Shown piece by piece: positions 4,506-60,981 of a DNA stretch of 64,000 nt (position 1 is its first letter; every line of letters begins with the position of its first letter). The position numbers and the translations under genes are program-made. The stretch covers positions 1,268 through 65,267 of the forward strand of contig CAINEW010000022.1 in NCBI GenBank assembly GCA_903847915.1, read 5' to 3'. Below the pieces are notes generated by a model that saw only the letters and a program-made list of their open reading frames with translations, was not told the origin of the DNA and ran no database searches. This stretch comes from an uncultured bacterium (GTDB taxonomy: Bacteria > Patescibacteriota > Minisyncoccia > UBA6257 > GWB1-50-10).

Positions 4506-4550
4506 AAATCAATCTAAACAAGTCACCTCTCTATAATACACTATGAGAAG

Positions 4551-4655
4551 ATGAAGCTCCACAACCTTATGTTGTATCTTCTGCGGAATCCGCCGAAGCA
4601 CCCTCCTTCGCTCTTCAAATTATGGAGGGTTCACCTTCATATGTATTCATGGACT
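4551..4655 (+). repeat. conserved ~100-nt motif copy 1 (ATGAAGCTCCACAAC...TTCTGCGGAATCCGCCGAA...CTTCAAATTATGGAGGG)
   Basis: About 75% identical to 22070-22175. Starts 14 nt after a TATAAT at 4532-4537 and begins with the mini-ORF MKLHNLML. Lies in the gyrA-SBP intergenic region on the strand opposite both genes. Confidence 0.5.
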
Positions 4656-4688
4656 TACGCCCATAGTACCTTGCGAAGGTGGATAAAA

Positions 4689-7115
4689 TTAGAGACACAC
4701 AATACCAATCAACGAGTCATCGTTATTGATATTCATGATGCGGACACCTTGTGTTGCGCGTCCTGTGATGCGCACATCAGAAAGAGCGGTGCGAATCGCC
4801 TGCCCTTTTGAAGAAAAGGCAATGAGTTCTTGAATAGTGTCATTCACTAAATGTGCCGCCATCACCTTTCCTGTTTTCGTGGTCACATTCGCCGTTTTGA
4901 CTCCTCCTCCTCCCCTCTTTTGCGATTTATATTCTTTAAGTGGTGTCTGTTTTCCGAATCCTTTAGACATCACCACAAGAAAACGATCGTTCATGCTCTC
5001 TTTCTCTATAATATCAAGGCCTGCCACGATATCATCTTTTTTCAAACGAATCGCGCGAATGCCCGCGGCCGTGCGTCCCGTCGGACGAATTTCTTTTTCT
5101 TTAAAACGAATAGATTGACCGTTCGTACTCACTAAAATAATTTGATCATCACCATGCGACAATTTTACCCATTTCAAGACATCATCATTATTAAGTGAAA
5201 GCGCGATAATGCCATTCCGTCGCACATTGGCAAAATCTTTGAGTGGCGTTTTCTTAATCAATCCTTTTGTCGTCGCCATAAGGAGATACCCTTCCGCATC
5301 CTTAGGATAGCTCACAATGCCGGTAATCAAATCATTCGGAGGAAGTTCAATAAAGTTATGTACTGAACGTCCTTTGGATGTACGGCTCGCGACAGGGATT
5401 TCATACGCCTTGGTCTGAAACACTTTTCCGCGATTGGTGAAAAAGAGCACATTGTCGTGCGAGTGGGCAATCATAATTTGGCGAATTTGGTCATCTTCTT
5501 TGAGTTCTGATCCGATAAGCCCCTTTCCTCCCCTTCGCTGCGACTTAAACGTGCCCGGAGGCATTCGTTTGATATACCCGTCTTCAGATAAGGTCACAAT
5601 TACATCCTCTTCAGGAATCAAATCTTCTTCGTTAAAATCTTTGAGTCCTGATTTTACCATCTTCGTTTTGCGCGGACTTGAATAGGTTGCCTTAAGATCA
5701 GAAAGTTCGCCGACAATAATCTCCGTAATTTTTTTCGGATGTTTTAAAATAAATTGCAATTCCGCAATCAGTTTCTTTTTCTCTTTTAATTCGTCTTCTA
5801 ATTTTCCGCGTTCCAACGCCGCAAGTGTTTGGAGCTTCATTTCCAAAATCGCAATCGCCTGCAATTCGGAAAGGCCGAATTTTTTCATCAAATTCTTTTT
5901 CGCGTCATCACGATCTTGCGATTTCTTAATGGTGGCAATCACCGCGTCAATAGAATCAAGCGCAGTGACGAGCCCTTCAAGAATATGCGCGCGTTCCTCT
6001 GCTTTTTTCAAATCAAATTGTGTGCGGCGACGCACCATAATCGTGCGGTGTTCAAGATATTCGCTCAACACCTCTTTTAATGAAAGCACTTGGGGCTGAA
6101 TGCCTTTTACAAGCGCCAACATATTAAAATAAAAATTCTTTTGAAGCTCGGTATATTCGTAGAGCTGATTCAAAATTTTCTGTGGTGCGCCATCTTGTTT
6201 CAATTCCACCACAATGCGCAATCCGTCGCGATCTGATTCGTCGCGAATATCACGAATTCCTTCAATTTTTTTCTCTTGTACCAATTCCGCCATTTTCACA
6301 ATCAAATCGGACTTATTCACTTGGTACGGAATCTCGGTAATAATAATTTGAAAACTTCCGCTCTTCCGTTCTTCAATATCCGCAACTGCGCGAATCGTCA
6401 CCGACCCCTTGCCGGTTGTGTAGGCCTCTTCAAGCGCGCGCGCATCAAAAATCGTGCCTCCGGTTGGAAAATCTGGTCCCGGAATAAATTTCATAAGGTC
6501 TTTCACCGTCGCATCAGGGTTATCGGAAAGATGCGCAATCGCATTTGCCACTTCCACAAAATTATGAGGAGGAATAGACGTTGCCATACCGACCGCAATA
6601 CCCACCGTCCCGTTCAAAAGAAGGTGAGGAAGTTTTGCAGGAAGATACTGGGGCTCTACGCGCGAGGCGTCATAGTTTGGGATCCACTCCACTGTTTCTT
6701 TTTCAATGTCAGTAAGGAGTTCTTCGGCAATATGAGTGAGACGCGCCTCAGTATAACGCATCGCGGCAGGCGCATCGCCGTCAATAGACCCCCAGTTTCC
6801 CTGCCCGTCTACCAATGGATAACGGAGCGAAAAATCTTGTGCCATGCGCGCCATAGAATCATAAATCGCCTGATCGCCGTGAGGGTGATACTTACCCATC
6901 ACTTCTCCGACCACATTCGCTGATTTTTTAAATTTTGTGCCGTGCGTAAGCCCCATGTCCCACATCCCCCACAAAATTCTCCTCTGCACCGGTTTTAAGC
7001 CGTCGCGTACATCGGGAATCGCGCGCGAGACGATTACCGACATCGCGTAATCAAGGTAGGACTCGCGGAGCTCTTTCGTAATTTCTTGAGGAATGATATT
7101 GATATGGTCTTCCAT
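4689..7115 (-). CDS. gyrA: DNA gyrase subunit A
   Basis: 808 aa; N-terminal ...[18 protein letters not shown]... and a C-terminal beta-pinwheel region. Classic GyrA/ParC, and the length with C-terminal repeats favours GyrA. Confidence 0.9.
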
Positions 7116-7122
7116 AAAATAA

Positions 7123-7488
7123 TTATTGTGAGATGGTTGACGGTGTGGTGCTCGGCGTCACAGAAATAGTGTTGCGCGATGAGAGCCGTTCTTCAAGGGT
7201 AGAAAATTGATCTTTGACGCGCGAAAATTGAGTGGCGGTATCTTGTTTAATTTTTGCAAATCCGCGTGAAAAGGTCTCAAAAAAAGAATCTTCTGATGAA
7301 GAAGCGTCTTTCGTCTCTGCGACCGCTGGTGCGGGACGAAGTGCGGGAAAAAGTGCGTCAGAAGAAAAAAACCATACGACGACCAAAAACGCAGTGAAAC
7401 AGAACGCGCCCCCGAGCACCCATCGTTGTTTTGATCGTTCGTCTTTGTGTTGAAGTGCGTGAATAAATTGAGAGAAGGAAAATGCCAT
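7123..7488 (-). CDS. hypothetical membrane-anchored protein
   Basis: 121 aa with a single TM helix and a Ser/Thr-rich tail. Confidence 0.4.
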
Positions 7489-7496
7489 AATAAAAA

Positions 7497-8159
7497 TTAT
7501 TCGTGTGCGAGCACCACGACCCTCATTGCTCCCGGGGTAATTTCTTTTTTCTTAATCACTAATTTTTCTTCTTCGGTGCGGTCTACCTGATTCATTTCTT
7601 TAAGGAAATTTGCAAGAGTTTTTTTATCAAATAAGGTAGGAATCACGACTCCCGGCTCAATCTGACGGATGAGTTTTGCACACGGATGGGGCGCAAGATA
7701 TTCTTCTGAGCCACCCGGTACCACAAGAATATCAACCCCCTGAAGTGCCTCTTGAATATCTGGATTAGGCTCTTTTGAAAGATGTCCCAAAATACCAATA
7801 GAAATATCATCCATCACCATATGATAAATAGTGTATTCTTTTCCATTCGTATGCGCGCTCTGCCACCCCTTAATCGGAATCCCATTCACTTCATATTCTC
7901 CCTGATGTTCAATCTGAAATGGCTCACGGGTTTCAAGTGCCGAAAAAGGAGAGGGTGAAATCGTAGAAAGCACCGCATTCGCACCCTTGAATGAGCGTTG
8001 ATTAAGCGGATCAATAAGGACGACCTGACTCCCTGTTTGGATTTTGAGTGAATTCTCTCCCTGAAAAGTAATAATCATAAGTAAAAAACAACCTCGTCTA
8101 TACGTTCCTCTAAGTATACCTTGATTTCTCTTGCAATTCAATACGATTTCATGGTACAC
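7497..8159 (-). CDS. hypothetical protein, Lactamase_B_3-like (MBL-fold related) without the HxHxDH motif
   Basis: 220 aa. The pattern ITFQGENSLKIQTGSQVVLIDP...GVDILVVPGG resembles metal-dependent hydrolase UPF0173-type proteins, but the canonical metal ligands are not obvious. Confidence 0.3.
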   Translation of the reverse strand: MYHEIVLNCKRNQGILRGTYRRGCFLLMIITFQGENSLKIQTGSQVVLIDPLNQRSFKGANAVLSTISPSPFSALETREPFQIEHQGEYEVNGIPIKGWQSAHTNGKEYTIYHMVMDDISIGILGHLSKEPNPDIQEALQGVDILVVPGGSEEYLAPHPCAKLIRQIEPGVVIPTLFDKKTLANFLKEMNQVDRTEEEKLVIKKKEITPGAMRVVVLAHE

Positions 8160-11585: not shown

Positions 11586-12001
11586 AATTTCGGGAGGATC
11601 AGGATCAGTAGTCCGCCCGGCTGACGCTAGTCGGACAGGCTTAGTGGAAGCTTTAGCGAAGGCAGGTACCTCGGTGTTGATGATTTCGTTTATATTAGGT
11701 CTGGATCAGTAGCTTAGTGGTTAAAGCTCCGAGCTTATACCTCGGCGACCGAAGGTTCAAATCCTTCCTGATCCACAAGCGTCTTACTTGCCTCGCCGAA
11801 GCTTTAGCGAAGGCAGGTACACGCTAGGTTCCAGGTTCGAATCCCGGCATGCCCACACGAGCACATAGCTCGTATTATCTAATTAGGGCGGTTAGCTTCG
11901 GCCCAAGGCCGATCCGCCTAGGGCGGACAGCGGTACCCGCCAGAATGACTTGTCGGGCTGGAGTCGGGCAGGGAGCAACTTTTTTACACGTTATCTAATT
12001 A
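11586..12001 (+). repeat. mosaic tRNA-fragment / repeat region surrounding tRNA-Ile and tRNA-Val
   Basis: The first 10 nt of tRNA-Ile (GGATCAGTAG) are duplicated at 11604. The 23-mer TATCTAATTAGGGCGGTTAGCT (Val-tRNA 5' flank plus start) is duplicated at 11874 and 11988. There are two copies of GAAGCTTTAGCGAAGGCAGGTAC (11648, 11799) and a partial copy of the GTACCCGCCAGAATGACTTGTCGGGCTGG core also seen at 53.4 and 57.7 kb. Confidence 0.6.
11703..11775 (+). tRNA. tRNA-Ile (anticodon TAT/UAU)
   Basis: Hand-folded. Acceptor GGATCAG/CTGATCC, D-stem GCTT/AAGC, anticodon stem CCGAG/CTCGG with loop CTTATAC (U33, A37), T-arm GAAGG-TTCAAAT-CCTTC, discriminator A. No encoded CCA. Confidence 0.7.
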
Positions 12002-12076
12002 GGGCGGTTAGCTCAGTGGTAGAGCAACACTTTTACACAGTGAAGGTCATAGGTTCAAATCCTATACCGCCCACCA
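12002..12076 (+). tRNA. tRNA-Val (anticodon TAC)
   Basis: Acceptor GGGCGGT/ACCGCCC, D-arm GCTC-AGTGGTA-GAGC, anticodon loop TTTACAC, T-arm ATAGG-TTCAAAT-CCTAT, discriminator A and encoded CCA. Confidence 0.8.
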
Positions 12077-51869: not shown

Positions 51870-51939
51870 AATAACAAATATGAGATTTTGAGCTTAATAG
51901 GATATATGTGTAATGCATATTTTCACTAAAAATCGGCTT

Positions 51940-52136
51940 GCAATTCCGTAGCTTTAGCGAAGGATTGCGGAAGCGGAAGGAGTCGAACGTCGCTCTGCTC
52001 CTTAAAAACCCATGGTTTTCAATACATTCCTCTACGGAAGGGACGCGGTTACTTCCCTTCCGACCCATCCCTCATTCGAATCCTTCATCACTATATAACA
52101 AAAAAGAACGACATAAAGTCGTCCCTTTTTGTTATG
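51940..52136 (-). repeat. tRNA-trailing mosaic element, copy after tRNA-Ser(TGA)
   Basis: Described in tRNA orientation. Hairpin AACAAAAAGGGACGAC...GTCGTTCTTTTTGTT; inverted T-arm GAAGGATTCGAAT; GGGTCGG plus hairpin GGAAGGGA/TCCCTTCC; hairpin AAAACC-ATG-GGTTTT; AAGGAG; GACGTTCGAC; direct repeat CTCCTTCCGCTTCCGCA of the tRNA 3' end; then CTTCGCTAAAGCTACGGAATTGCAAG. Confidence 0.6.
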
Positions 52137-52223
52137 CGGAAGCGGAAGGATTCGAACCTTCGAGACCATTTCTGATCTACTTGTTTTCAAGACAAGCCCT
52201 TTCAACCACTCAGGCACGCTTCC
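52137..52223 (-). tRNA. tRNA-Ser (anticodon TGA), type II
   Basis: Reverse complement GGAAGCG-TG-CCTG...; anticodon stem CTTGT/ACAAG with loop CTTGAAA; long variable arm; T-arm GAAGG-TTCGAAT-CCTTC; discriminator G. Confidence 0.75.
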
Positions 52224-52266
52224 TTTATCGTCCGTTTAGTGTATTAAAAAACAAGAAAAAAGTAAA

Positions 52267-52593
52267 TTAGTGCGAGAAAATAGATGTCGTGATCGCTTCA
52301 CGTGCCCATAGTGTAAGTGTTTCTCTATTTTCAATAATTTCTTCAGGGACTTCATAATAATTTTTTAACACCTGTCTTTTGCTCGGGGCAAAAGGTTGCA
52401 TATTGTATTGTTCAAATTTTTTCTTGGTAATTTCATCTGTTTTAAAATAGAGATGATTATTTGAAATGATAGCAAAGAAAGTAGCACCGGCATAAAATCC
52501 ATAACCAGAAAACATTTTTCGTGCCCGCACATTCTCCAATTCGTTTAATTGATCTAGTACAAAATCACAAAAAGAATCTTGATGTGTATGCAT
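52267..52593 (-). CDS. TfoX/Sxy N-terminal domain protein (competence-regulator-like)
   Basis: RKMFSGYGFYAGATFFAIISNNHLYFKTDE matches the TfoX_N core (MFGGYGLY...LYLK). Confidence 0.6.
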   Translation of the reverse strand: MHTHQDSFCDFVLDQLNELENVRARKMFSGYGFYAGATFFAIISNNHLYFKTDEITKKKFEQYNMQPFAPSKRQVLKNYYEVPEEIIENRETLTLWAREAITTSIFSH

Positions 52594-52631
52594 TGTTAAA
52601 AGTTATTTATTTATAATCTTAAGTTGTTTTG

Positions 52632-52704
52632 TGTCCCCACTCCGAATTGAACGGAGATATGCAGCTTAGGAGTCTGCCGCTCTATCCATTTGAGCTATAG
52701 GGAC
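52632..52704 (-). tRNA. tRNA-Arg (anticodon CCT)
   Basis: Reverse complement GTCCCTA-TA-GCTC-AAATGGATA-GAGC; anticodon loop CTCCTAA; T-arm CTCCG-TTCAATT-CGGAG; acceptor 3' strand TGGGGAC-A. One A·G mismatch at the base of the anticodon stem. Confidence 0.65.
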
Positions 52705-52720
52705 CCTATTACGTTTTACT

Positions 52721-53101
52721 ATGCCTCATATTGAGCTTTTCGTAAACATGAAGTATGATAAATCTGCCGTGAACGAACATTTCTTTGAGGGTCAGCGTCT
52801 TTCAGATAAAACGTGTAAAAAAATAGAACGAACCCTGCAACAGCTTCGTGAAGAATTGGGTAATGTAGAGTGGACAGACGTGCACGATCACGGGTCAAGT
52901 GTATTTACCGTCACGTTTACTGATAATGCAGGTACGCGGCATACGCTTGGGTTTACAAAAATAGGCGATAGTTTGCCTGTGGATGGGGGTTTTTATCCGA
53001 TTGAAGAAGTGGTAGAGGCGAGTGTTCGTTTTCCCGATAATCTCGAAGAAGGAATTAAAATAATCCACAAAACACACCAAGAAGAAAAAGAGGGCGTTTA
53101 G
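52721..53101 (+). CDS. hypothetical protein
   Basis: 126-aa ORF; the 3' end overlaps the start of tRNA-Val(GAC) by about 10 nt. Confidence 0.4.
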   Translation: MPHIELFVNMKYDKSAVNEHFFEGQRLSDKTCKKIERTLQQLREELGNVEWTDVHDHGSSVFTVTFTDNAGTRHTLGFTKIGDSLPVDGGFYPIEEVVEASVRFPDNLEEGIKIIHKTHQEEKEGV

Positions 53102-53163
53102 TTTAGTGGTAAAACGTCACATTGACATTGTGAAGACCGCAGGTTCGATCCCTGCAACGCCCA
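53092..53163 (+). tRNA. tRNA-Val (anticodon GAC)
   Basis: GGGCGTT-TA-GTTT-AGTGGTA-AAAC; anticodon stem TCACA/TGTGA with loop TTGACAT; T-arm GCAGG-TTCGATC-CCTGC; acceptor AACGCCC-A. Confidence 0.8.
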
Positions 53164-53173
53164 CACGAAACGC

Positions 53174-53244
53174 GGGCCTATAGTAAAATGGTATTACGCG
53201 TCCATGGCATGGATGAGGTCGGGGTCCGATTCCCCGTAGGTCCA
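53174..53244 (+). tRNA. tRNA-Ala (anticodon GGC)
   Basis: G3·U70 alanine identity pair in the acceptor GGGCCTA/TAGGTCC; anticodon loop ATGGCAT; T-arm CGGGG-TCCGATT-CCCCG. Confidence 0.75.
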
Positions 53245-53259
53245 CCTACAAAGAAATAA

Positions 53260-53346
53260 GGAAGGTTGGCAGAGTGGTCTAATGCGCCGCACTCGAAATG
53301 CGGTTGGGGAGAAATCCCCTCGGAGGTTCAAATCCTCCACCTTCCG
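53260..53346 (+). tRNA. tRNA-Ser (anticodon CGA), type II
   Basis: GGAAGGT...; anticodon stem CCGCA/TGCGG with loop CTCGAAA; long variable arm GGGGAGAAATCCCC; T-arm GGAGG-TTCAAAT-CCTCC; discriminator G. Confidence 0.8.
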
Positions 53347-53535
53347 CAGGAGGATTTGAACAAGGAGTGGGGTCGGGAGAACACTTGATCTCCCGTGTCG
53401 GAAACCCGCCCGAACGTACCCCGCCAGAATGACTTGTCGGGCTGGCGTTCGGTACGGGCGGGCATTAAAACCGAAGGGTTTTAAAAAATATGCATTCGCA
53501 TATTTTGTTTAACTCCTCCACCTTCCGCCTTTGCT
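53347..53535 (+). repeat. tRNA-trailing mosaic element, copy after tRNA-Ser(CGA)
   Basis: Inverted T-arm GGAGGATTTGAAC immediately after the tRNA; GGGGTCGG plus hairpin GGGAGA-ACACTTGA-TCTCCC; palindromic core CCCGCCCGAACGTACCCCGCCAGAATGACTTGTCGGGCTGGCGTTCGGTACGGGCGGG; hairpin TTAAAACC-GAA-GGGTTTTAA; direct repeat TCCTCCACCTTCCGC of the tRNA 3' end at 53518-53533. Confidence 0.6.
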
Positions 53536-53567
53536 CGCTAGCGAGTTACAACGGACAAACCCACAAA

Positions 53568-53598
53568 TAAAAACATCTCCTAGTGAGATGTTTTTATT
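53568..53598. terminator. bidirectional terminator (AAAAACATCTC-CTAGT-GAGATGTTTTT)
   Basis: Perfect 11-bp stem; immediately downstream of the minus-strand gene 53601-54146. Confidence 0.6.
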
Positions 53599-53600
53599 TC

Positions 53601-54146
53601 TTATAATCCTTGATGACGGGATCGTTGAGTACGGTTTATAAGTTCATCGCGGATTAATTCTGCGTCTGATTGAGAAAGTCCAGGTAGTCTTCCTTCTGAC
53701 ATCGCCGCGTTAGGAGCACTATATCCTGCAGTTTGGATTTGTAAATCAGAGAGTCCTAATATGCGCGCGATGATACCACGATAAATATCCACATTTTGAA
53801 TACGATCGTAAGGAATAGTGACATAACGTTTCCAAATCACCCCTGATTCTTTTTTAAACCCTTGTTCAGTAAGTTCATAGCGATAATAGTGATAAGAAAG
53901 GCGCGCCCAACAATACGCTCCTCCCACGGTCAAAACAATCCAGAAGAAAAAGGAAGAACCAAGAAATCCAAAAATCCATGTAGGATCGCCTTGTGTATTC
54001 ATTGAGACAAAGAAAGTAACCGCTCCCATCGTAATAATAGAGCCTGCAAACCATGCAAAAATCGCAAAAAGAGGAAGAAGTTTAAGAGTAAAAAGCCACA
54101 CTGCTTTCGGATCAAGTTGTTTCATAATGAATTTATTGTAATACAC
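53601..54146 (-). CDS. bacterial PH domain (bPH_2/YdbS-like) membrane protein
   Basis: Two N-terminal TM helices followed by a PH-like domain (…GVIWKRYVTIPYDRIQNVDIYRGIIARILGLSDLQIQTAG). Confidence 0.6.
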   Translation of the reverse strand: MYYNKFIMKQLDPKAVWLFTLKLLPLFAIFAWFAGSIITMGAVTFFVSMNTQGDPTWIFGFLGSSFFFWIVLTVGGAYCWARLSYHYYRYELTEQGFKKESGVIWKRYVTIPYDRIQNVDIYRGIIARILGLSDLQIQTAGYSAPNAAMSEGRLPGLSQSDAELIRDELINRTQRSRHQGL

Positions 54147-54197
54147 TAAAAGTTAAAAAATCAAATTAGTGCTCGGGGCGGGGATCGCCGCTCAAAT

Positions 54198-54479
54198 TTA
54201 TTTGAGCGATCCTCGCCCATCTTTAATGGGCGGGAACCCGCATTGAAAATATGTTTTTAATTTTCTTCTTCCTGCGCCACTTTTCCAGTAACGCTCTCTT
54301 ATTTTTGCGGTTGCAAGATCAAAGCTCTCCTCAATAAAAAGAATAATAAATGGTCTTCGGTTACGGGTTGCATCAACCTTTCCATTCATATGTTCCTCGA
54401 ATCGAATATCAATGTTTTTGGCATATCCCACATACGTTCTTTTGTCCTTTATACTTTGTAAAATATAAACACAATACAT
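54198..54479 (-). CDS. GIY-YIG nuclease family protein (YhbQ/UPF0213-like)
   Basis: MYCVYILQSIKDKRTYVGYAKNIDIRFEEHMNGK is a GIY-YIG motif. Start set at the internal Met because the longer ORF-track model (to 54551) overlaps tRNA-Leu. The ATG shares its A with the terminal A of the tRNA's encoded CCA. Confidence 0.6.
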   Translation of the reverse strand: MYCVYILQSIKDKRTYVGYAKNIDIRFEEHMNGKVDATRNRRPFIILFIEESFDLATAKIRERYWKSGAGRRKLKTYFQCGFPPIKDGRGSLK

Positions 54480-54565
54480 GGTGCTCGGAGTGGGAGTCGA
54501 ACCCACATGACCTTTATGGTCACAACATTTTAAGTGTTGCGCGTAAACCATTCCGCCATCCGAGC
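54479..54565 (-). tRNA. tRNA-Leu (anticodon TAA), type II, CCA encoded
   Basis: Reverse complement GCTCGGA-TG-GCGG...; anticodon stem CAACA/TGTTG with loop CTTAAAA; long variable arm; T-arm GTGGG-TTCGACT-CCCAC; acceptor TCCGAGC-A-CCA. Confidence 0.8.
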
Positions 54566-54575
54566 AAGGAACATG

Positions 54576-54647
<72 letters not shown>

Positions 54648-54688
54648 ATACTTCTTCCTCAATAATTCCTTTTATTGTTTTTTAAAAT

Positions 54689-55021
54689 CTACTCACTTAC
54701 AACCTCACTTATTTCGTCGCTTACCACTTCGTCTTTGTGATCATCAGCGACGAAGGCGATATGCGGAACGGGCTTAATGCGGAGTTTTTTGACAAGCATC
54801 TGTTGAAATCGTCCACGCGCATAGTGTAGCGCGCGTAACACCTCTAGTGTATTTGCTTCAGGAATGATACCAAGTTTTACTTTAGCATGCAATAAATCTT
54901 CATCTACCTGCACACTTGTAATAGTAACTAGTGTATCTTCCACAAAAAAGTCACGTGCAAGTATTTTGCCTAATTCGTGCTCAATCAAATCAGCAATTTT
55001 AAGATTACGAAAAGGACGCAT
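54689..55021 (-). CDS. rbfA: ribosome-binding factor A
   Basis: 110 aa; KH-like RbfA signature (…RDFFVEDTLVTITSVQVDEDLLHAKVKL...); sits immediately downstream of infB. Confidence 0.8.
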   Translation of the reverse strand: MRPFRNLKIADLIEHELGKILARDFFVEDTLVTITSVQVDEDLLHAKVKLGIIPEANTLEVLRALHYARGRFQQMLVKKLRIKPVPHIAFVADDHKDEVVSDEISEVVSE

Positions 55022-55026
55022 AAAAA

Positions 55027-56508
55027 TTAAGAGTTATTCAATTCAAATACAAGACGATAACCCACTTTAATCGGCTCTTCACTTTTCACTAACATTCCCG
55101 CTTCTTGATCTTTTTCTACTAAAGCGCTATCTGCGCGACCGACTTGAAGATTTAAAATAGATCCTTTTCCGATTAATTTTTTATCATCCCATATCTCAAA
55201 CGTTTCTTGGTTGTGAATAGGACCGCAGAGTACCTTGCCTCCCACAATGCGCTCATTTTGATTTTTCCCCTGACCAAACACCGCAAGGATTTCTAAGGTG
55301 CGTGCTTCGTGGGAAACTGTCTTTTTAAAATAAACTTCTAGTTCTTTTTGGAGGGTGTAAATAACCGCAGAGGTAAAAATCATCACCTTTTTCGCGTGTG
55401 CTAGGTTGCGCGCTGCGCTATCTTCTTTGGTGCGAAAACCAACAATTATCGCACCGGTGCTTTCTGCAAGTTTTACTTCGCTTTCGTGAATATTACCAAT
55501 ACTTTCTGCAACAATCACTAAGGGGTAAATTGCATCCATTGCGCGCACCAAAGTACTCAACACCTCAAGTGAGCCAGCTTCGTCTGCTTTCAAAATAATC
55601 ATTGTGCGTTTTGAAAGTTCTTCACGGGTAAATCGTGTCCGCGCAAGCGGGGGCACCACTTCTTCTTGAGGGAGCGTTGCTCGGATGGCTTGAAGATTAT
55701 TTCCTGCAACAAATGATTCTCCCACGCGCGGCGCCGTTTCAAATCCTAATAGAATGACAGGCGCACTAGGCAGAAGTGCGGACGCGGGTTTCCCTTCGTG
55801 ATTTTCCAATATTTTTATTCTTCCTGTAGCAGAGGGGGTGATAATAAAATCGCCTTGACGTGCTGTACCATTTTTCAAAATGCCTGTCGCAATAATACCT
55901 CGTTTTTGATCAATTGCAGAAGAGAGGATAATACCAGATGTAATAACATCAGGATCATATGAAAAATTTTCTACATCTGCTGTTAATTCTATAAGATCAA
56001 GGATCGCATCAACTCCCTCACCCGTTTTTGCAGAAATACCGTGCCATGAAATTGTACCTCCCCGCCCTTCAAGATAAATACCCGCCTTTGCACAATCATT
56101 TTTCACTTTTTCAAGATCAATGCCGGACTTATCAATTTTATTGATGGCGACAATATAAGGAATTTTCGTTTCTAAAATATAAGAAAGTGCATTAAGTGTT
56201 TGGGGTTGAATACCATCATCCGCCGCAATAACCAAAATCGCAATGTCTGCCGCCCGTGCTCCTCGCGCTCGCATAACTGCAAACGCTTCATGGCCGGGCG
56301 TATCAATAAACGTCATTTTTTTGTCGTGGTGAGTAATTTCATACGCGCCTACAGATTGCGTAATCCCACCTGCTTCTTTAGGGGCGGTGTTTGATTTACG
56401 AATAAAATCCAAAAGAGTTGTTTTGCCGTGATCTACATGACCCATCACGACGACAATCGGAGGTCTTTGCATAGTGTGTAAAATCAACCATACCAGAAAA
56501 ATCGGCAT
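55027..56508 (-). CDS. infB: translation initiation factor IF-2 (N-terminally minimal form)
   Basis: The G-domain [16 protein letters not shown] starts almost at the N-terminus; domains II-IV follow. The true start may be the Met at 56472. Confidence 0.88.
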
Positions 56509-56638
56509 TATACAAGGGAAAAATGAACTTGAGAAAAATAAAAAAATAAGGTACCATTGTTTTTATACCCAATTATTTGTCTTGGTTGGTGAAACAAGAG
56601 GTAAATAACTCCACACCAACTACGGCTATAGTTAGTGT

Positions 56639-56725
56639 GGAGGCGTGTCTGAGCGGTCTAAAGAAGCATCCTGCTAAGATGTTGATCGGGAAACCGGTCC
56701 GAAGGTTCGAATCCTTCCGCCTCCG
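56639..56725 (+). tRNA. tRNA-Ser (anticodon GCT), type II
   Basis: GGAGGCG...; anticodon stem GCATC/GATGT with loop CTGCTAA; long variable arm; T-arm GAAGG-TTCGAAT-CCTTC; acceptor CGCCTCC; discriminator G. Confidence 0.75.
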
Positions 56726-56940
56726 CATAACAAAAAGGAACGACTTTATGTCGTCCTCTTTTTGTTATATGATGACGAAGGATTCGAACAAGAGAGGGGT
56801 CGGGAGAACATCTGGTCTCCCGTGTTGGAAATAGCCCAAAGGGCGTTTAGAAACCACGGGTTTCTAAGGAGCAAAGCGACGCTCGACTACCTTCCGCCTC
56901 CGCAATTCTTCGCTAAAGCTACGGAATTGCAAGACGATTT
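56726..56940 (+). repeat. tRNA-trailing mosaic element, copy after tRNA-Ser(GCT)
   Basis: About 80% identical along its full length to the copy after tRNA-Ser(TGA). Hairpin AACAAAAAGGAACGAC/GTCGTCCTCTTTTTGTT; inverted T-arm GAAGGATTCGAAC; GGGGTCGG plus hairpin GGGAGA/TCTCCC; hairpin AGAAACC-ACG-GGTTTCT; AAGGAG; GACGCTCGAC; direct repeat CTACCTTCCGCCTCCGCA; CTTCGCTAAAGCTACGGAATTGCAAG. Confidence 0.6.
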
Positions 56941-57355
56941 AGTAAGGAAGTCCGGTGTAAAACACACGACCCTGACGAAAATCGAGGGAGATTTTATACA
57001 AAAGCCAAGTGTCCAAGTTATAGCGAAAATCGCTAAAGCGTTTCGTGAAGCAGCAAAATCCAATCAGAACTACAAATTAACGGTAAAAAATGGTGGGGTA
57101 TATGGCAGATCTAACAGTGGAGAGAGAATCCAAATTAATAATCTTGGTAAATGGCTTTTTGGAGTTTCTGGTTATAGGGGTCACGTGATCTATGGTCCTA
57201 TTTCAGCGACAGAATTTCGCGTCTATTATCCGGAAGGCGCACCAATTGAAGTTGTGAAGATGCTCGAAACTATTACTGGAGAAATGGTAAAGAGTAAATG
57301 TCTCTATTGGGGTAACACCGCCTACGAAGATCATTGGATGGCAACACAAATGTAG
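56927..57355 (+). CDS. XRE-type HTH-like protein (N-terminus uncertain)
   Basis: …LVRKSGVKHTTLTKIEGDFIQKPSVQVIAKIAKAF resembles HTH_3 helices 2-4. The ORF-track model starts at 56762 (TTG) inside the repeat element; the alternative TTG at 56927 lies at the element border. Followed by a terminator at 57372-57398. Confidence 0.35.
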   Translation: MQDDLVRKSGVKHTTLTKIEGDFIQKPSVQVIAKIAKAFREAAKSNQNYKLTVKNGGVYGRSNSGERIQINNLGKWLFGVSGYRGHVIYGPISATEFRVYYPEGAPIEVVKMLETITGEMVKSKCLYWGNTAYEDHWMATQM

Positions 57356-57371
57356 GTCATCAAATTTATAA

Positions 57372-57398
57372 AAATCATATCATAAAGATATGATTTTT
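57372..57398 (+). terminator. rho-independent terminator (AAATCATATC-ATAAA-GATATGATTT + T-run)
   Basis: Perfect 10-bp stem followed by TTTTTTATTT. Confidence 0.65.
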
Positions 57399-57556
57399 TT
57401 ATTTCTTTAGGAAGAACATCTTCTTTGTGGATAACTGCGGATCATTTGTGGCTGAAGGGGTTATAGAACACGCCGGTATGTGTCTAAGGATTTATTAAAC
57501 AAAATAGACAAATAATAGAAAAAACGCTAGAATAAACACCAGTGTTTTATGAATGC

Positions 57557-57628
57557 GCTCCCATAGTCTAACGGCTAGGACATCGCCCTTTCACGGCGGG
57601 GATAGGAGTTCGATTCTCCTTGGGAGTA
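57557..57628 (+). tRNA. tRNA-Glu (anticodon TTC)
   Basis: GCTCCCA-TA-GTCT-AACGGCTA-GGAC; anticodon loop CTTTCAC; T-arm AGGAG-TTCGATT-CTCCT; acceptor TGGGAGT-A. The D-arm is typical of tRNA-Glu. Confidence 0.75.
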
Positions 57629-57852
57629 CAAGATAATATAGTAGGTTGAAAAAATTAATAAAGGAGAATCGAACACGAGGAGGAGTCGGGAGGAAACGGG
57701 AGTGTCCTCCCGCGAAGGAGATCCCGCTCGTACCGAACGCCAGCCTGACAAATCATTCCGGGCGGGGTACGTTCGGGCGGGTATTCAGAACCGTGGGTTC
57801 TGAAGGAGTCCGCCCTGGGCGGACGACGTTCGCTTCTCCTTGGGAGTACAAG
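57629..57852 (+). repeat. tRNA-trailing mosaic element, copy after tRNA-Glu
   Basis: Inverted T-arm AAGGAGAATCGAAC; hairpin GGGAGGA/TCCTCCC; the palindromic core in reverse orientation (CCGAACGCCAGCCTGACAAATCATTCCGGGCGGGGTACGTTCGGGCGGG); hairpin CAGAACC-GTG-GGTTCTG; AAGGAG; hairpin GTCCGCCCTGGGCGGAC; GACGTTCGC; 19-nt direct repeat TTCTCCTTGGGAGTACAAG of the tRNA 3' end at 57834-57852. Confidence 0.6.
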
Positions 57853-57941
57853 GAAGCTTATCACGAGTAACTGATAACAAATAACAGAAAATAGATAAAA
57901 TTGAAATAAAAAAACTTCACAATAAAGATGAAGTTTTTTGA

Positions 57942-58283
57942 TTATGGCTTTAAAAAAATATAACCGTAGTTTTGTTGTGCTATAGAATATTTTGAAAAAT
58001 TAAAAAAACCAGCTATATTTTTTGTTTCCTTATTGATCAGCGCAACACCCTTAAAACGATAGACGTGAAAAAAATCATCAGGCTGTATAGCACTGAAGTG
58101 TGTAATATAGATACACAGAGGACCATTGAGCATAATAGTAACTTTAAGCGCACCGGCAATTTTAACATCTTCATCGTGACCGTTATAAGGATAATGATTC
58201 GCTAAAAAAACAAAATGAGCGAGAGCTAATCTTTCTACAGGCGCGACTATTTCATACTTTTCTTCTAAAATTCTTTTTCTCAT
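57942..58283 (-). CDS. hypothetical protein
   Basis: 113-aa ORF with no recognisable motif. Confidence 0.35.
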   Translation of the reverse strand: MRKRILEEKYEIVAPVERLALAHFVFLANHYPYNGHDEDVKIAGALKVTIMLNGPLCIYITHFSAIQPDDFFHVYRFKGVALINKETKNIAGFFNFSKYSIAQQNYGYIFLKP

Positions 58284-58408
58284 GTTTTATTTGTTAATGA
58301 ACAAATAAACATTAACAGAATAATATTAATATGTCAAATATTTACGATGAAGTAACACAAAACACAACAAATGATTTTTAAGTCATTTTTTGATATGATG
58401 AAGTAACT

Positions 58409-58876
58409 ATGGAAAACGAGAAAAAAATTGTGTGGCGGGCAGCAGAACGGGAACATCACGATCACACGCGCGAATGGTATCTTATTTTTGGAGGTATTGC
58501 AGTAGTGTTGTTGGTTGTGAGCATTTTTCAGAAAAACTTTTTCTTTGGAGTATTTGTGGTAATAGGCGTATTTACTCTTTTGATGTTTCATAAAGAAATT
58601 CCTCATATACGCGAATATGCACTCGGAAAAGAAATAATAACCATTGACGCAATAACGTATCATTACGAAGATTTTACGCGCTTTGCAGTGCGTGAACGGA
58701 AAGACACGCTTGATGAAATTGTGCTTTATCATGTGTCAAAAATAAATCCTCCATTGCGTTTGCCGATTGACCACGTCCTTGCTGAAAAAGTGCGCGCGGC
58801 ACTCAAAGAAAAATTAGAAGAAATAGAATACGACGAATCACTAACGGATGTAATGAAAGATATTTTCAAACTCTAA
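58409..58876 (+). CDS. hypothetical membrane protein
   Basis: 155 aa; two TM helices followed by a charged C-terminal domain. Confidence 0.45.
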   Translation: MENEKKIVWRAAEREHHDHTREWYLIFGGIAVVLLVVSIFQKNFFFGVFVVIGVFTLLMFHKEIPHIREYALGKEIITIDAITYHYEDFTRFAVRERKDTLDEIVLYHVSKINPPLRLPIDHVLAEKVRAALKEKLEEIEYDESLTDVMKDIFKL

Positions 58877-58998
58877 AAATTGCGAAATCGGATTATTTGA
58901 GATATAGTATAAGAGAATTTAATTATTCATTTCGGAAGGATAAGTTTTTAAATAAAAGCGAAAGAGGGCTGTGCCCTTCGTAGCTTGAGCGAAGAAGG

Positions 58999-59070
58999 GC
59001 CCTTGTCGTTCAAAGGATAGGACGCGAGATTGCGGATCTCGTAATAGAGGTTCGATTCCTCTCGAGGGCA
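58999..59070 (+). tRNA. tRNA-Arg (anticodon GCG)
   Basis: GCCCTTG-TC-GTTC-AAAGGATA-GGAC; anticodon stem CGAGA/TCTCG with loop TTGCGGA (G37); T-arm AGAGG-TTCGATT-CCTCT; acceptor CGAGGGC-A. Preceded 18 nt upstream by a GTAGCTTGAGCGAAG box. Confidence 0.65.
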
Positions 59071-59116
59071 CATAATAACTAGAAACAAATAACTACTAAC
59101 TTATAACTATTAAGAA

Positions 59117-59434
59117 ATGGATAATGTAAAACTTGTTATATTTGTGCCACTCACGCACACCGATATAGTACGCAAAACACTTGGAGAAGCGGGCGCAGGG
59201 AAAATAGGAAATTATGATTTTTGTTCTTTTTCTTCTCGGGGCATAGGACGTTTTCGTGGAAATGAAAAAGCGCATCCCGCGATTGGAGAGGCGGAAAATT
59301 ATGAAGCTATTGAAGAAGAAAGAGTTGAAGTGGTGGTACCACGATCAATACTAAAAGAAGTTATTGAAAAAGTAAAAGCAGTACATCCTTATGAGGAAGT
59401 TGCTTTTGATGTGTATCCATTGGAAAATTACTAA
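59117..59434 (+). CDS. small conserved protein resembling the PII-like insert domain of Nif3/YqfO proteins (stand-alone)
   Basis: VIFVPLTHTDIVRKTLGEAGAGKIGNYDFCSFSSRGIGRFRG...HPYEEVAFDVYPLE. Assignment is from memory of the family; 105 aa. Confidence 0.35.
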   Translation: MDNVKLVIFVPLTHTDIVRKTLGEAGAGKIGNYDFCSFSSRGIGRFRGNEKAHPAIGEAENYEAIEEERVEVVVPRSILKEVIEKVKAVHPYEEVAFDVYPLENY

Positions 59435-59638
59435 ACAATACGTTATAGTAAAACCATGAAAGGGGAGTGGAAATATGTGTATTTAATAGGGCTTGTGGTC
59501 ATATTAGGAGTAGTGTACCTCCTCCTTCGTGCGGTCGCGCCAAAAAATAGTACTACACCCTCCTTATTTAAGGGACCGGAAGGGACGCCGTTTGTGAAAG
59601 GCCCCACGGAGCCACCGCCAGCGGAACAATAGTAAAAT

Positions 59639-59712
59639 GCGAGATTAGTATAGTGGTAGTACGTAACATTGCCAATGTTAAGGCACCGGTTCGATCCCGG
59701 TATCCCGCACCA
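59639..59712 (+). tRNA. tRNA-Gly (anticodon GCC), CCA encoded
   Basis: GCGAGAT-TA-GTAT-AGTGGTA-GTAC; anticodon stem TAACA/TGTTA with loop TTGCCAA; T-arm ACCGG-TTCGATC-CCGGT; acceptor ATCCCGC-A-CCA. One A·C mismatch in the acceptor stem. Confidence 0.7.
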
Positions 59713-59771
59713 AAATAAAAAATCGAAAAAGGAAAGTTCCCTGCCCGACGGCAGGCGGGGATTCTCCTTAC
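59713..59771 (+). repeat. minimal tRNA-trailing element after tRNA-Gly
   Basis: Hairpin CCTGCC-CGAC-GGCAGG, then CGGGGATTCTCCTT, then TACCCGCACA, a near-copy of the tRNA-Gly 3' end ATCCCGCACCA. Confidence 0.4.
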
Positions 59772-59812
59772 CCGCACAGATAAAAAGATATGACACAAGG
59801 TCATATCTTTTT
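59772..59812. terminator. bidirectional terminator (AAAGATATGAC-ACAAG-GTCATATCTTT)
   Basis: Perfect 11-bp stem flanked by A-runs and T-runs; immediately downstream of the tyrS stop. Confidence 0.65.
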
Positions 59813-59820
59813 ATTTTATG

Positions 59821-60981
59821 CTATATAATTTTCCAAAAACGTTTCTTGCCAATTTTAAGAACCTCGCCACCTTTGAGTGATAACAATTCGGTCACATCAG
59901 TTTTTAACACTTCATTAATTTCCACGGCGCGTTGATCGATAAGCCGTCGCGCATCACTCTTACTTCCTTCGGTGGCACTACACACCAAATCAAGAAGAGT
60001 AATTAATTGTCCGCGATGATGCAAAAGAGGCATCTCTTGAGGCGTCTGTTTTTTTGAGAACACGCGCACAAATTCTTCTCGAGCTTCAAGCGCTTTTTTT
60101 TCTCCATGATACAGAGCGGTGATGGTTTCTGCGAGAAGCATTTTAGATTCATAAGGGCCAAAGTTTTCCGGAGCATCAAGAAAGGTAAGAAGCGTAAAAT
60201 ATTTCGGGACGAGTGAATCGGGGATGGACATTATTTTTCCAAACATAATTTCAGGTGCTTCGGTGAGCCCTACATAATTTCCAATACTCTTACTCATTTT
60301 CTTCACTCCATCAAGTCCCTCTATAATCGGCACAGTGAGCACGTCTTGTTCAGACATATTAAATGCGCGCTGAACACGGCGTCCCATAAGCATATTAAAT
60401 GTCTGATCAGTGCCTCCTAGCTCCACATCCGCGCGTATCGCAACCGAATCATACCCTTGAAGCAAGGGATAGAGCAGTTCAAGAAGAGCAATATCCGTGC
60501 CGGCACCAAGACGTTTTTCAAAATCATCACGTTTGAGCACTTGTTGCACGGTTGCGGTTTGCGCAAGCATAAGGAGTGCCGAAAGCCCCTTTTTCTCATG
60601 CCATTCGCTATTATGATGCACTTCTGTTTTTTTAACATCAATGATTTTTGACGCCTGTTTCAAGTATGTTTTTTCATTCTGTTTTACTTCTTGTACGGTG
60701 AGTGTTTTACGTGTTTCAGTACGCCCCGAAGGATCACCAATTCGGGCGGTAAAGTCGCCAATAATAAGAACGATTTTATGGCCCAAATCCTGAAACTGAC
60801 GAAGTTTACGGAGCACAACCGTATGTCCCAAATGAATATCGGGAGAGGTCGGATCAATGCCAAATTTCACGCGCAGTTTTTTACCGCTCCGAAGTGCTGA
60901 TTCAAGATGCTCGCGCACAATAACATCTTCAACTCCACGCGTAAGCACGCTCATAATTTTCTGCTCGTCTAATTTCTTCAT
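59821..60981 (-). CDS. tyrS: tyrosine--tRNA ligase
   Basis: PTSPDIHLGHTV (HIGH), KMSKSIGN, and a C-terminal S4-like domain; 386 aa. Confidence 0.9.
   Translation of the reverse strand: MKKLDEQKIMSVLTRGVEDVIVREHLESALRSGKKLRVKFGIDPTSPDIHLGHTVVLRKLRQFQDLGHKIVLIIGDFTARIGDPSGRTETRKTLTVQEVKQNEKTYLKQASKIIDVKKTEVHHNSEWHEKKGLSALLMLAQTATVQQVLKRDDFEKRLGAGTDIALLELLYPLLQGYDSVAIRADVELGGTDQTFNMLMGRRVQRAFNMSEQDVLTVPIIEGLDGVKKMSKSIGNYVGLTEAPEIMFGKIMSIPDSLVPKYFTLLTFLDAPENFGPYESKMLLAETITALYHGEKKALEAREEFVRVFSKKQTPQEMPLLHHRGQLITLLDLVCSATEGSKSDARRLIDQRAVEINEVLKTDVTELLSLKGGEVLKIGKKRFWKII

Follow-up and report, generated by a model that had tools for sequence, protein, structure and literature searches.

The 64,000-nt stretch analysed here (hereafter the window) encodes GyrA, FtsH, RecA, FtsK, NusA, LeuRS, IF-2, RbfA, TyrRS, and ClpP, and is a housekeeping stretch of a patescibacterial (Candidate Phyla Radiation, CPR) genome. 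The closest relative of its IF-2 among 5.8 billion proteins shows 56% identity, and the named relatives are from Patescibacteria, Paceibacterota, and Jorgensenbacteria. Thirteen tRNA genes were found in the window with ARAGORN and Rfam. Four of them, tRNA-Ser(TGA) on the minus strand and tRNA-Ser(CGA), tRNA-Ser(GCT), and tRNA-Glu(TTC) on the plus strand, are each trailed, in the host orientation, by a small structured element that ends in a second copy of the 3' part of the tRNA. These elements are called W1, W2, W3, and W4, respectively. The right-hand motif of the element was observed three times in the window, against 0.03 expected. A covariance model trained on 31 copies gave scores of 76–98 bits for W1 to W4 and at most 12 bits for the rest of the 64 kb. 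No mobility gene was detected with Pfam in approximately 40 open reading frames (ORFs) from the window, and no tyrosine recombinase was found among the window ORFs scanned.

All four elements have the same order of parts: X1, spacer, IR-L, core, and X2. X1 is the last 23 nt of the tRNA itself, from G53 to CA. The spacer between X1 and IR-L is 0–50 nt long and carries a bidirectional terminator hairpin in W1 and W3. IR-L is a 13- to 14-nt exact reverse complement of G53, the T-loop, and the 3' strand of the T-stem; its sequences in the window include GAAGGATTCGAAT/C, GGAGGATTTGAAC, and AAGGAGAATCGAAC. An inverted copy of the host's own T-arm had been described in the sequence-only reading of this DNA, and it is present in all four elements. 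IR-L is followed by GGGTCGG and a hairpin: a purine-rich joint (J1/2) ending in GGGGT leads into the P2 hairpin (CGG...CCG). The joint between P2 and P3 (J2/3) is GTGTAGGAAA, and in some copies it is followed by an extra hairpin. The second hairpin, P3, has the pattern TT-NNRAACC-GNG-GGTTYNN-AA and is followed by the P4 helix, GGAGC...GCGAC. X2, 22–24 nt long, repeats the tRNA sequence from G53 through the discriminator, together with CA. The start of X2 pairs with IR-L, so that the whole element is a four-way junction. The strings AAGGAG and GACGYTCG, which had been listed as motifs behind the second hairpin, are indeed present, but neither stands free: the AA pairs with the TT at the base of P3, GGAGC pairs with GCGAC, and GACGYTCG is the end of the P4 helix followed by the T-loop-like start of the repeat.

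W1 lies on the minus strand. The tRNA-Ser(TGA) gene (52136–52223) ends in X1 (52135–52157) and is followed by the spacer with the terminator hairpin (52095–52135), IR-L (GAAGGATTCGAAT, the T-loop and T-stem 3' strand in inverted form; 52074–52086), the core (51989–52073; 87.8 bits), and X2 (GTTCGACTCCTTCCGCTTCCGCA; 51966–51988). The core consists of J1/2, P2 (52035–52062), J2/3, P3 (52002–52022), and P4 (51989–52001). The other three elements lie on the plus strand. In W2, IR-L (GGAGGATTTGAAC; 53349–53361) directly adjoins tRNA-Ser(CGA) (53260–53347; X1, 53326–53348) without a terminator. Its core (53362–53506; 76.5 bits) comprises P2 (53374–53395), P3 (53465–53484), and a Watson–Crick variant of P4 (53485–53506), and X2 (GTTTAACTCCTCCACCTTCCGC) is at 53507–53528. 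In W3, tRNA-Ser(GCT) (56639–56726; X1, 56705–56727) is followed by a spacer with the terminator hairpin (56727–56768), IR-L (GAAGGATTCGAAC; 56777–56789), the core (56790–56880; 98.5 bits), and X2 (GCTCGACTACCTTCCGCCTCCGCA; 56881–56904). P2, P3, and P4 occupy 56801–56822, 56847–56867, and 56868–56880, and J2/3 contains a small hairpin. In W4, a 30-nt AT-rich spacer separates tRNA-Glu(TTC) (57557–57629; X1, 57608–57630) from IR-L (AAGGAGAATCGAAC; 57661–57674). The core (57675–57827; 89 bits) has P2 at 57687–57712, P3 at 57784–57804, and P4 with an extra hairpin at 57805–57827, and X2 (GTTCGCTTCTCCTTGGGAGTACA) is at 57828–57850.

The approximately 80% identity noticed earlier between the copies after tRNA-Ser(TGA) and tRNA-Ser(GCT) was reproduced over 243 columns. 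However, it resides in the flanks, which are 94% identical (the W3 spacer against the W1 spacer, for example), whereas the cores share just 63–67%. The "palindromic core" of approximately 48 nt is a palindrome, but it turned out to be a separate 58-nt module with a perfect stem, nested between P2 and P3, that is, in J2/3, of W2 (53405–53462) and W4 (57723–57781) in opposite orientations. The loop of this module, TACCCGCCAGAATGACTTGTCGGGCTGG, is also present 5' of tRNA-Val(TAC), and a related sequence is at 11934–11961. A fifth copy, in minimal form, had been proposed after tRNA-Gly(GCC). This region (59713–59771, plus strand) contains a hairpin (CCTGCC..GGCAGG) and a tRNA-end-like sequence, TACCCGCACA, which has only about 7–10 nt in common with the tRNA end, and the model gave no match there at E ≤ 10. 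It is not a demonstrable member of the family, and at best a decayed remnant.

The two hairpin stems had been said to co-vary, and this was borne out in an alignment of 101 independent metagenome copies (all metagenome counts in this text are among the matches listed) for the helices P1 (IR-L with the start of the gene-end copy) to P4. Pairing was found in 96.1% of the paired cells, compared with 82.3% in shuffled alignments, and it fell to 36–66% when the partners were slid by 1–3 columns. Double-sided changes occurred in 17 of the 23 pairs (12.6 in the shuffled alignments), and 359 cells were changed on both sides (116 in the shuffled alignments). None of 500 shuffles reached the observed values. 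It should be mentioned that this alignment was fitted to the model and leans towards the structure. The same helices were obtained in an independent MAFFT/RNAalifold run with 31 copies. The elements form a genuine family whose single-strand structure is conserved and shows compensatory changes. In P4, tandem G-A/A-G pairs were observed in 29 of the 31 aligned copies; the other two, W2 and one copy at locus L003, have Watson–Crick AAAAT/ATTTT instead. The core is 85–100% conserved across distant lineages. Since G-U exceeds A-C in the stems by 55 to 11, the folding strand seems to be the sense strand of the host gene. A sense-strand fold is supported by these counts, and this is valid for RNA or single-stranded DNA alike. 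In some tRNA copies (L150, L156, L167, L225, and L236), a small GC hairpin splits the T-loop-like start of X2 (GGGTTCTAG-GCCGAAGGC-CGGAxTCC), giving a variant junction beside P4.

A family-wide search with a covariance model, as had been suggested, yielded at least about 140 further copies, nearly all from Patescibacteria. When the right-end motif was scanned against 185,579 species genomes with a pattern that favours tRNA sites, 27 loci were found. By record title, 24 are from Patescibacteria; one, with a full copy, bears the label Micavibrio; the remaining two, from Gemmatimonadota, both lie in coding sequence and were taken as chance matches. In 21 of the 27, the motif is 100–250 nt 3' of a tRNA gene with the same orientation; these tRNAs cover 14 amino-acid identities. 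A tRNA-independent pattern from the middle of the core gave at least 120 metagenome loci, nearly every one with a strong covariance-model match. The model matches numbered 32 from the genome scan and 108 from the metagenome scan. The Micavibrio-labelled copy (L021, 4059–4160 of DYDB01000002.1) is a full element of 87.6 bits after tRNA-Leu(CAA) on a 177-kb contig; either this contig, which carries the name of an alphaproteobacterial predator, is mis-binned or the copy lies outside Patescibacteria.

The elements were unmatched in Rfam 15 at the gathering threshold, where only the tRNAs matched, and a search at E ≤ 5 over 51900–59850 left them uncovered except for weak chance hits. No described equivalent was found in the open-access literature searched. 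This agrees with the earlier impression that the class had not been described: the family is apparently undescribed and widespread in Patescibacteria. These bacteria are rich in group I introns, and the single related paper retrieved deals with those in the anticodon loops of their tRNAs, which are distinct from the elements described here (PMC13011429). The right-end motif gave no match in viral contigs. A looser left-end pattern gave at least 120 loci in viral contigs; these are presumed to be chance matches from its low specificity. No blastn match with the W3 element was obtained in plasmid and phage records.

The elements are not specific to tRNA genes, as they had appeared to be in the window. 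Only 31 of the 108 metagenome copies lie within 400 nt 3' of a tRNA gene, many others being too near contig ends to judge, and other copies are at protein genes. Both scans together provided 87 unique classifiable copies, the genome scan being biased towards tRNAs by its pattern. A tRNA 3' end is duplicated in 45 of these, and five more follow a tRNA without a clear repeat. Sixteen copies duplicate the 3' end of a same-strand protein gene. In five, something else is duplicated; among these are copies at the 5' end of dnaX and at that of a heavy-metal-associated-domain gene (L206), in either case with the gene on the opposite strand. A repeat was not detectable in the remaining 16. Recurrent neighbours are rpsI (11 loci), dnaX (8), rplL (6), and a 515-residue membrane protein (6); gapA and H+-PPase were also found.

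The layout is constant at all these targets: the gene ending in D (X1), the spacer, IR-L, the core, D' (X2), and the downstream flank. D measures 14–90 nt; its far end is the stop codon, the end of the tRNA, or the start codon, and in some copies it takes in the terminator too. This variable length, always reaching the gene end, does not fit the fixed-length target-site duplication that had been suggested. IR-L is the reverse complement of the first 12–26 nt of D. The terminal repeats, IR-L and X2, are host-derived and different at every target, and no common target tetranucleotide was seen among the copies compared. IR-L fits the upstream copy in 54 cases, against 9. In the rplL and membrane-protein copies, the first 7–8 nt of X2 are constant between hosts, whereas X1 varies. 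In the tRNA copies, X1 and X2 differ in 22% of cells at the first 7 nt of X2, compared with 4.5% beyond.

The codon differences between X1 and X2 in protein genes comprise 54 synonymous and 21 non-synonymous ones, and the nucleotide differences at codon positions 3, 1, and 2 number 59, 19, and 11. Silent swaps include CGA and AGG (Arg) in rpsI, CGG and AGG (Arg) in dnaX, and four or five in eight codons of rplL. As judged from these substitutions, the repeat copies behave like two functional alleles. Duplication in situ followed by neutral decay of X2 is ruled out by the mostly synonymous differences and by the foreign upstream end at the polymorphic locus described below.

Comparison of empty and filled sites had been proposed as a test of mobility, and such a polymorphism, in support of mobility, was found at the rpsI (S9) locus. 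An identical S9 protein (P0122) is encoded on several strain-level contigs, of which L268, L270, and L273 are empty and L269 is filled. The filled allele belongs to ERZ27237554, and the empty ones to ERZ27237587, ERZ27237538, and GCA_021823645.1. The flanks are 98.8–100% identical, the right flank in 2315 of 2315 positions. L269 has exactly 185 extra bp, which form one unit with a 62-bit model match. In the empty allele, the S9 stop codon TAG is followed by a terminator (AAGAAACCCCGCCACC...). In L269, the gene ends in ACAGCAATGGAGAAAAAGATAA (X1) with a TAA stop and a different terminator. Then come IR-L (CTCCATTGCTGT), which is the reverse complement of positions 1–12 of the repeat, and the core. 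Farther downstream is ACAGCAATGGAGAAAAAGATAG (X2), which has the native TAG stop and is followed by the native terminator. Therefore, the downstream copy is the native gene end, and the insert consists of a gene-end copy, a terminator, IR-L, and the core.

The rpsI gene of L200 carries the cassette of L269 with the same terminator, and that of L274 carries a related one with a near-identical core and a different terminator. At the nucleotide level, the S9 genes of L200 and L274 share just 75–76% identity with that of L269, and other S9 lineages are empty. The terminator of the L269 cassette is similar to the one native to rpsI in the L274 lineage. Occupancy also varies between genomes at orthologous tRNA sites: the tRNA-Phe site is filled in L174 and empty in L195, and the tRNA-Arg(GCG) site is empty in the window and filled in L016, L153, and L246. 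Tandem arrays of two copies are present in at least nine loci, including L003, L019, L173, L202, L209, L227, L253, and L259, and orphan or truncated copies exist as well. Fourteen near-identical cores were found at dnaX, rpsI, tRNA-Asn, tRNA-Thr, tRNA-Trp, and other targets in different samples. Rarely, cargo lies between X1 and IR-L: a 227-residue ORF in L195 and 3.5 kb in L196, neither with a recombinase domain. The L196 segment (4021–7517) encodes an LD-carboxypeptidase, a peptidase S51, and a hypothetical protein, has inverted repeats of approximately 260 nt at both ends, and sits within the palindromic terminator between tRNA-Ala(TGC) and its element.

From these features, the element is probably, though by no means certainly, an integrative cassette that lacks an integrase, carries a replacement gene end, and recombines into gene ends. 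Such cassettes, approximately 130–250 bp long and without a recombinase of their own, would integrate into the terminal 15–90 bp of conserved genes, mostly at tRNA 3' ends, otherwise at the 3' ends of rpsI, rplL, gapA, and others, and occasionally at a 5' end. The inserted unit would consist of the cassette's own gene-end copy (X1 from the crossover point on), often with a terminator and rarely with cargo; a 12- to 17-nt stretch inverted from the start of this segment (IR-L); and a core of approximately 90–110 nt with the sense-strand hairpins P2, P3, and P4. IR-L and the start of the gene-end copy would form P1, a fourth helix that closes the structure. Recombination would take place inside the sequence common to cassette and target. 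The cassette copy would then complete the gene, and the native end with its terminator would be displaced downstream as X2; a direct repeat arises in this model because of this displacement. The crossover is probably near the left edge of the shared gene-end sequence, because IR-L mostly fits the upstream copy, the X2 starts of the rplL and membrane-protein copies are constant, and the differences in the tRNA copies are concentrated in the first 7 nt of X2.

The intermediate may be circular or single-stranded, in which case P1 would imitate a double-stranded target, as do the attC sites of integrons and the attP hairpin of CTX phage. For L269, the predicted circle junction is P4-GCGAT followed by ACAGCAATGGAGAAAAAGATAA and AAGGAAACTCCCC. 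The conserved core would be recognised by a trans-acting recombinase whose gene lies elsewhere in the genome. In a bolder form of this model, P1 is a programmable address in which IR-L and the sense copy determine the integration site, either through base pairing or as a mimic of the target duplex; a host enzyme reads nothing but the core, and a templated step rewrites the address from each new target. This extension seems doubtful. If it were true, the cassette would be a protein-gene-free, retargetable DNA-insertion module of approximately 100 nt.

Several observations weigh against the cassette model. The S9 locus is a single strain-level polymorphism and is equally explicable as a precise deletion between the repeats, and neither a circular form nor its junction was observed. 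No recombinase gene is near any copy in 145 loci, ORF clustering (25 and then 145 loci) revealed no recurrent non-housekeeping neighbour, and phmmer with single XerD, Hin, and IS200 TnpA queries matched none of 1,089 ORFs, a search of limited sensitivity. In L006, L224, L005, and L027b, IR-L matches the downstream copy beyond position 7. The near-identical cores of cluster 48 occur at unrelated targets with wholly different IR-L and gene-end copies, and the model does not account for how a cassette gains a new target. Nor does it account for the 94% identity of the W1 and W3 flanks beside cores of about 65%. Finally, both the strong G-U bias and the very high degree of core conservation would be compatible with a functional RNA as well.

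The last point leads to the reading of the element as a functional structured RNA, transcribed together with highly expressed genes or immediately after them, for example a 3'-end stabiliser, a processing signal, or a regulator. The closing helix would then pair with the end of the host transcript, and the duplications would be a by-product of gene spread. The sense-strand fold and the deep conservation of the core agree with this, as do the host orientation of all the tRNA copies, the 16 copies at same-strand protein 3' ends, and the lack of a mobility gene nearby; the tandem G-A pairs of P4 recall protein-binding kink-turn-like motifs. However, the whole unit is present or absent between strains, occupancy at orthologous sites is patchy, and tandem, decayed, and orphan copies exist. 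In addition, a terminator usually separates the gene from the element, a promoter scan gave no excess over shuffles near the elements, and the dnaX and L206 copies lie antisense to the genes whose ends are repeated in them. This reading is thus considered unlikely. Its narrower form in the sequence-only reading, a tRNA-trailer RNA with a mimic of the 3' end, fails for the protein-gene copies and for those antisense to dnaX. An intron-like RNA, in which IR-L serves as an internal guide (the P1/P10 logic of group I introns) and the unit is spliced from the transcript, is scarcely credible. IR-L can pair with the starts of both X1 and X2, X2 keeps a coding-type substitution pattern, the fold is on the sense strand, and group I introns abound in this phylum; but the upstream copy already makes a complete gene, furnished with a stop codon or tRNA 3' end of its own and, in many cases, with a terminator. 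Besides, the dnaX copies are antisense, yet X2 is synonymously recoded there, no intron or ribozyme in Rfam matched at E ≤ 5, and the core is far below the size of any group I or group II intron.

Two further readings involve DNA mobility of a known kind. The direct repeats of gene 3' ends, the target spectrum typical of integrases, and the genes between X1 and the core in two copies would suit scars of classical integrase-mediated integration, i.e., attL/attR remnants of deleted prophages or islands. Such an origin is distinctly unlikely in view of the polymorphic insert, which is complete at only 185 bp, and of the one compact covarying fold shared by at least about 140 copies. Core subfamilies are common to unrelated targets and samples, an integrase remnant is beside no copy, the right-end motif is absent from viral contigs, and W3 is unmatched in plasmid and phage records. 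An ordinary MITE (miniature inverted-repeat transposable element), that is, a deletion derivative of an insertion sequence (IS) that has terminal inverted repeats of its own and a target-site duplication of fixed length, would likewise be short, non-coding, and multi-copy, with inverted and direct terminal repeats. The inverted repeat here is, however, taken from the host and different at every target, the duplication of 14–90 nt ends at the gene end, and no transposase relative was found with phmmer at its limited sensitivity. In L269, the two repeat copies differ from the outset in stop codon and terminator, with the upstream copy borne by the insert and the native copy downstream, which is the pattern of gene-restoring integration. 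A MITE, which had been the first suggestion for these elements, is therefore very improbable.

Other identities were rejected. HDV (hepatitis delta virus), hammerhead, twister, and hairpin ribozymes have no Rfam match here, and the pairing does not fit them. A guide RNA of the TnpB/IscB type would have its guide sequestered by IR-L, and there is no nuclease gene. A primer site for reverse transcription, like a primer-binding site (PBS), would give the wrong order of parts. The differences are not adenine-specific, as they would be between the template and variable repeats of a diversity-generating retroelement. An IS200/IS605-derived element is contradicted by the long duplication, the lack of a common tetranucleotide, and the absence of an IS200 TnpA match in the loci searched. 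A group I intron was rejected from the lack of an Rfam intron match, the complete upstream gene, and the antisense copies.

The cassettes share features with several known systems. Streptococcal elements with tyrosine integrases use the 3' ends of tRNA genes, rplL, and rpsI and rarely 5' ends, with direct repeats of 12–54 bp (PMC4701971). The cassettes resemble such prophages, integrative and conjugative elements, and integrative and mobilizable elements in the kinds of target, in the element-borne gene end that keeps the gene intact (PMC4701971), in the variable direct repeats with an exact gene end, in the native end lying downstream, and in tandem accretion. Unlike them, the cassettes have no integrase and, in nearly all cases, no gene at all, are only approximately 130–250 bp long, and possess the four-helix single-strand core and the target-complementary inverted segment that are lacking in classical attP. 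As in the attC sites of integrons and the attP(+) hairpin of CTX (PMC5027507, PMC4792948), a strand-specific fold would define the recombination module, and the helix contains mismatches. Integron cassettes are likewise small, may carry a promoterless ORF, form arrays, and depend on a trans-acting enzyme, which for the present cassettes is a conjecture. In contrast to attC, the cassettes at protein genes have no GTTRRRY/RYYYAAC boxes: the CGAAC...GTTCG of the tRNA copies is due to the T-loop alone, and the protein-gene copies start and end with unrelated sequence. There is no integron integrase, attI, or promoter Pc in the vicinity. Unlike attC, the core is strongly conserved in sequence, and the targets are gene ends genome-wide and not one attI, with a closing helix copied from the target.

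MITEs and the repetitive extragenic palindromes and bacterial interspersed mosaic elements (REP/BIME) are also short and non-coding, form hairpins, occur in multiple copies at gene ends, and are non-autonomous. The cassettes are distinguished from these by host-derived terminal repeats, the long and variable duplication that restores the gene end, and specific conserved genes as targets. A segment that complements the element's own insertion site and varies between sites is shared with the internal guide sequence of group I introns, the exon- and intron-binding sites (EBS/IBS) of group II introns, and the bridge RNA of IS110. However, the cassettes have no intron core, reverse transcriptase, IS110 transposase, or Rfam match, and their guide-like segment pairs with the sense copy, both corresponding to the same positions of the target. 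Gene-restoring integration itself is known; the distinguishing features are the miniature size, the absence of a gene, the four-helix core, and the closing helix derived from the target.

Other small repeats were noticed near the tRNA genes. The window contains five copies, against 0.14 expected, of a second family: a hairpin of approximately 29 nt with the conserved loop TTCGCYNRRGCTWCG (11646–11660, 11797–11811, 51947–51961, and 58979–58993 on the minus strand; 56909–56923 on the plus strand). All flank tRNA genes, and one overlaps the 5' end of tRNA-Arg(GCG). The stem is made from the adjoining tRNA end, e.g., GCAATTC/GAATTGC after two Ser X2 copies. This hairpin is also found in L007, L008, L196, L231, L238, and L253. 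A 22-nt direct repeat, TATCTAATTAGGGCGGTTAGCT (11876–11897 and 11992–12013), duplicates the flank 5' of tRNA-Val(TAC) together with the initial 12 nt of the gene and encloses approximately 95 nt of structured sequence; it looks like a small insertion that duplicated the tRNA 5' end. At 11831–11857, between tRNA-Ile and tRNA-Val, is an orphan sequence like a tRNA 3' half, CCAGGTTCGAATCCCGGCATGCCCACA, without a tRNA body. In the Leu-Val-Phe-Gly tRNA cluster of L195 (4215–4560), the Leu–Val gap holds a short structured insert of approximately 90 nt and the Val–Phe gap a hairpin, both of which are missing from L174. The tRNA clusters of the carrier genomes appear to gather several kinds of small insertions.

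Two neighbouring protein genes should be mentioned. An HTH_3 gene (56939–57355) directly 3' of the Ser(GCT) element looks N-terminally truncated, its Pfam match starting from profile position 17, and its open frame can be followed upstream across the element as far as a TTG at 56762. It was considered as a conserved partner of the element and rejected, as a homologue is near no other copy. An ORF of the GIY-YIG nuclease family (54198–54551) overlaps tRNA-Leu(TAA) (54479–54565) on the same strand, and its real start is probably further in.

Patescibacteria have tiny genomes and are thought to be poor in mobile DNA. Here, several cassette copies are present in one 8-kb tRNA cluster, and the family recurs phylum-wide at genes of the highest conservation. 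The pseudo-tRNA ends and gene-end duplicates that the cassettes create can mislead the annotation and assembly of metagenome-recovered genomes, and the cassettes are usable as strain-level markers. Insertion at a gene end together with a spare end, by means of a core of approximately 100 nt and without any gene, would be a minimal parasite strategy in a gene-dense genome. If the target-matching helix truly directs integration, the cassettes would represent a new natural route to site-specific DNA insertion.

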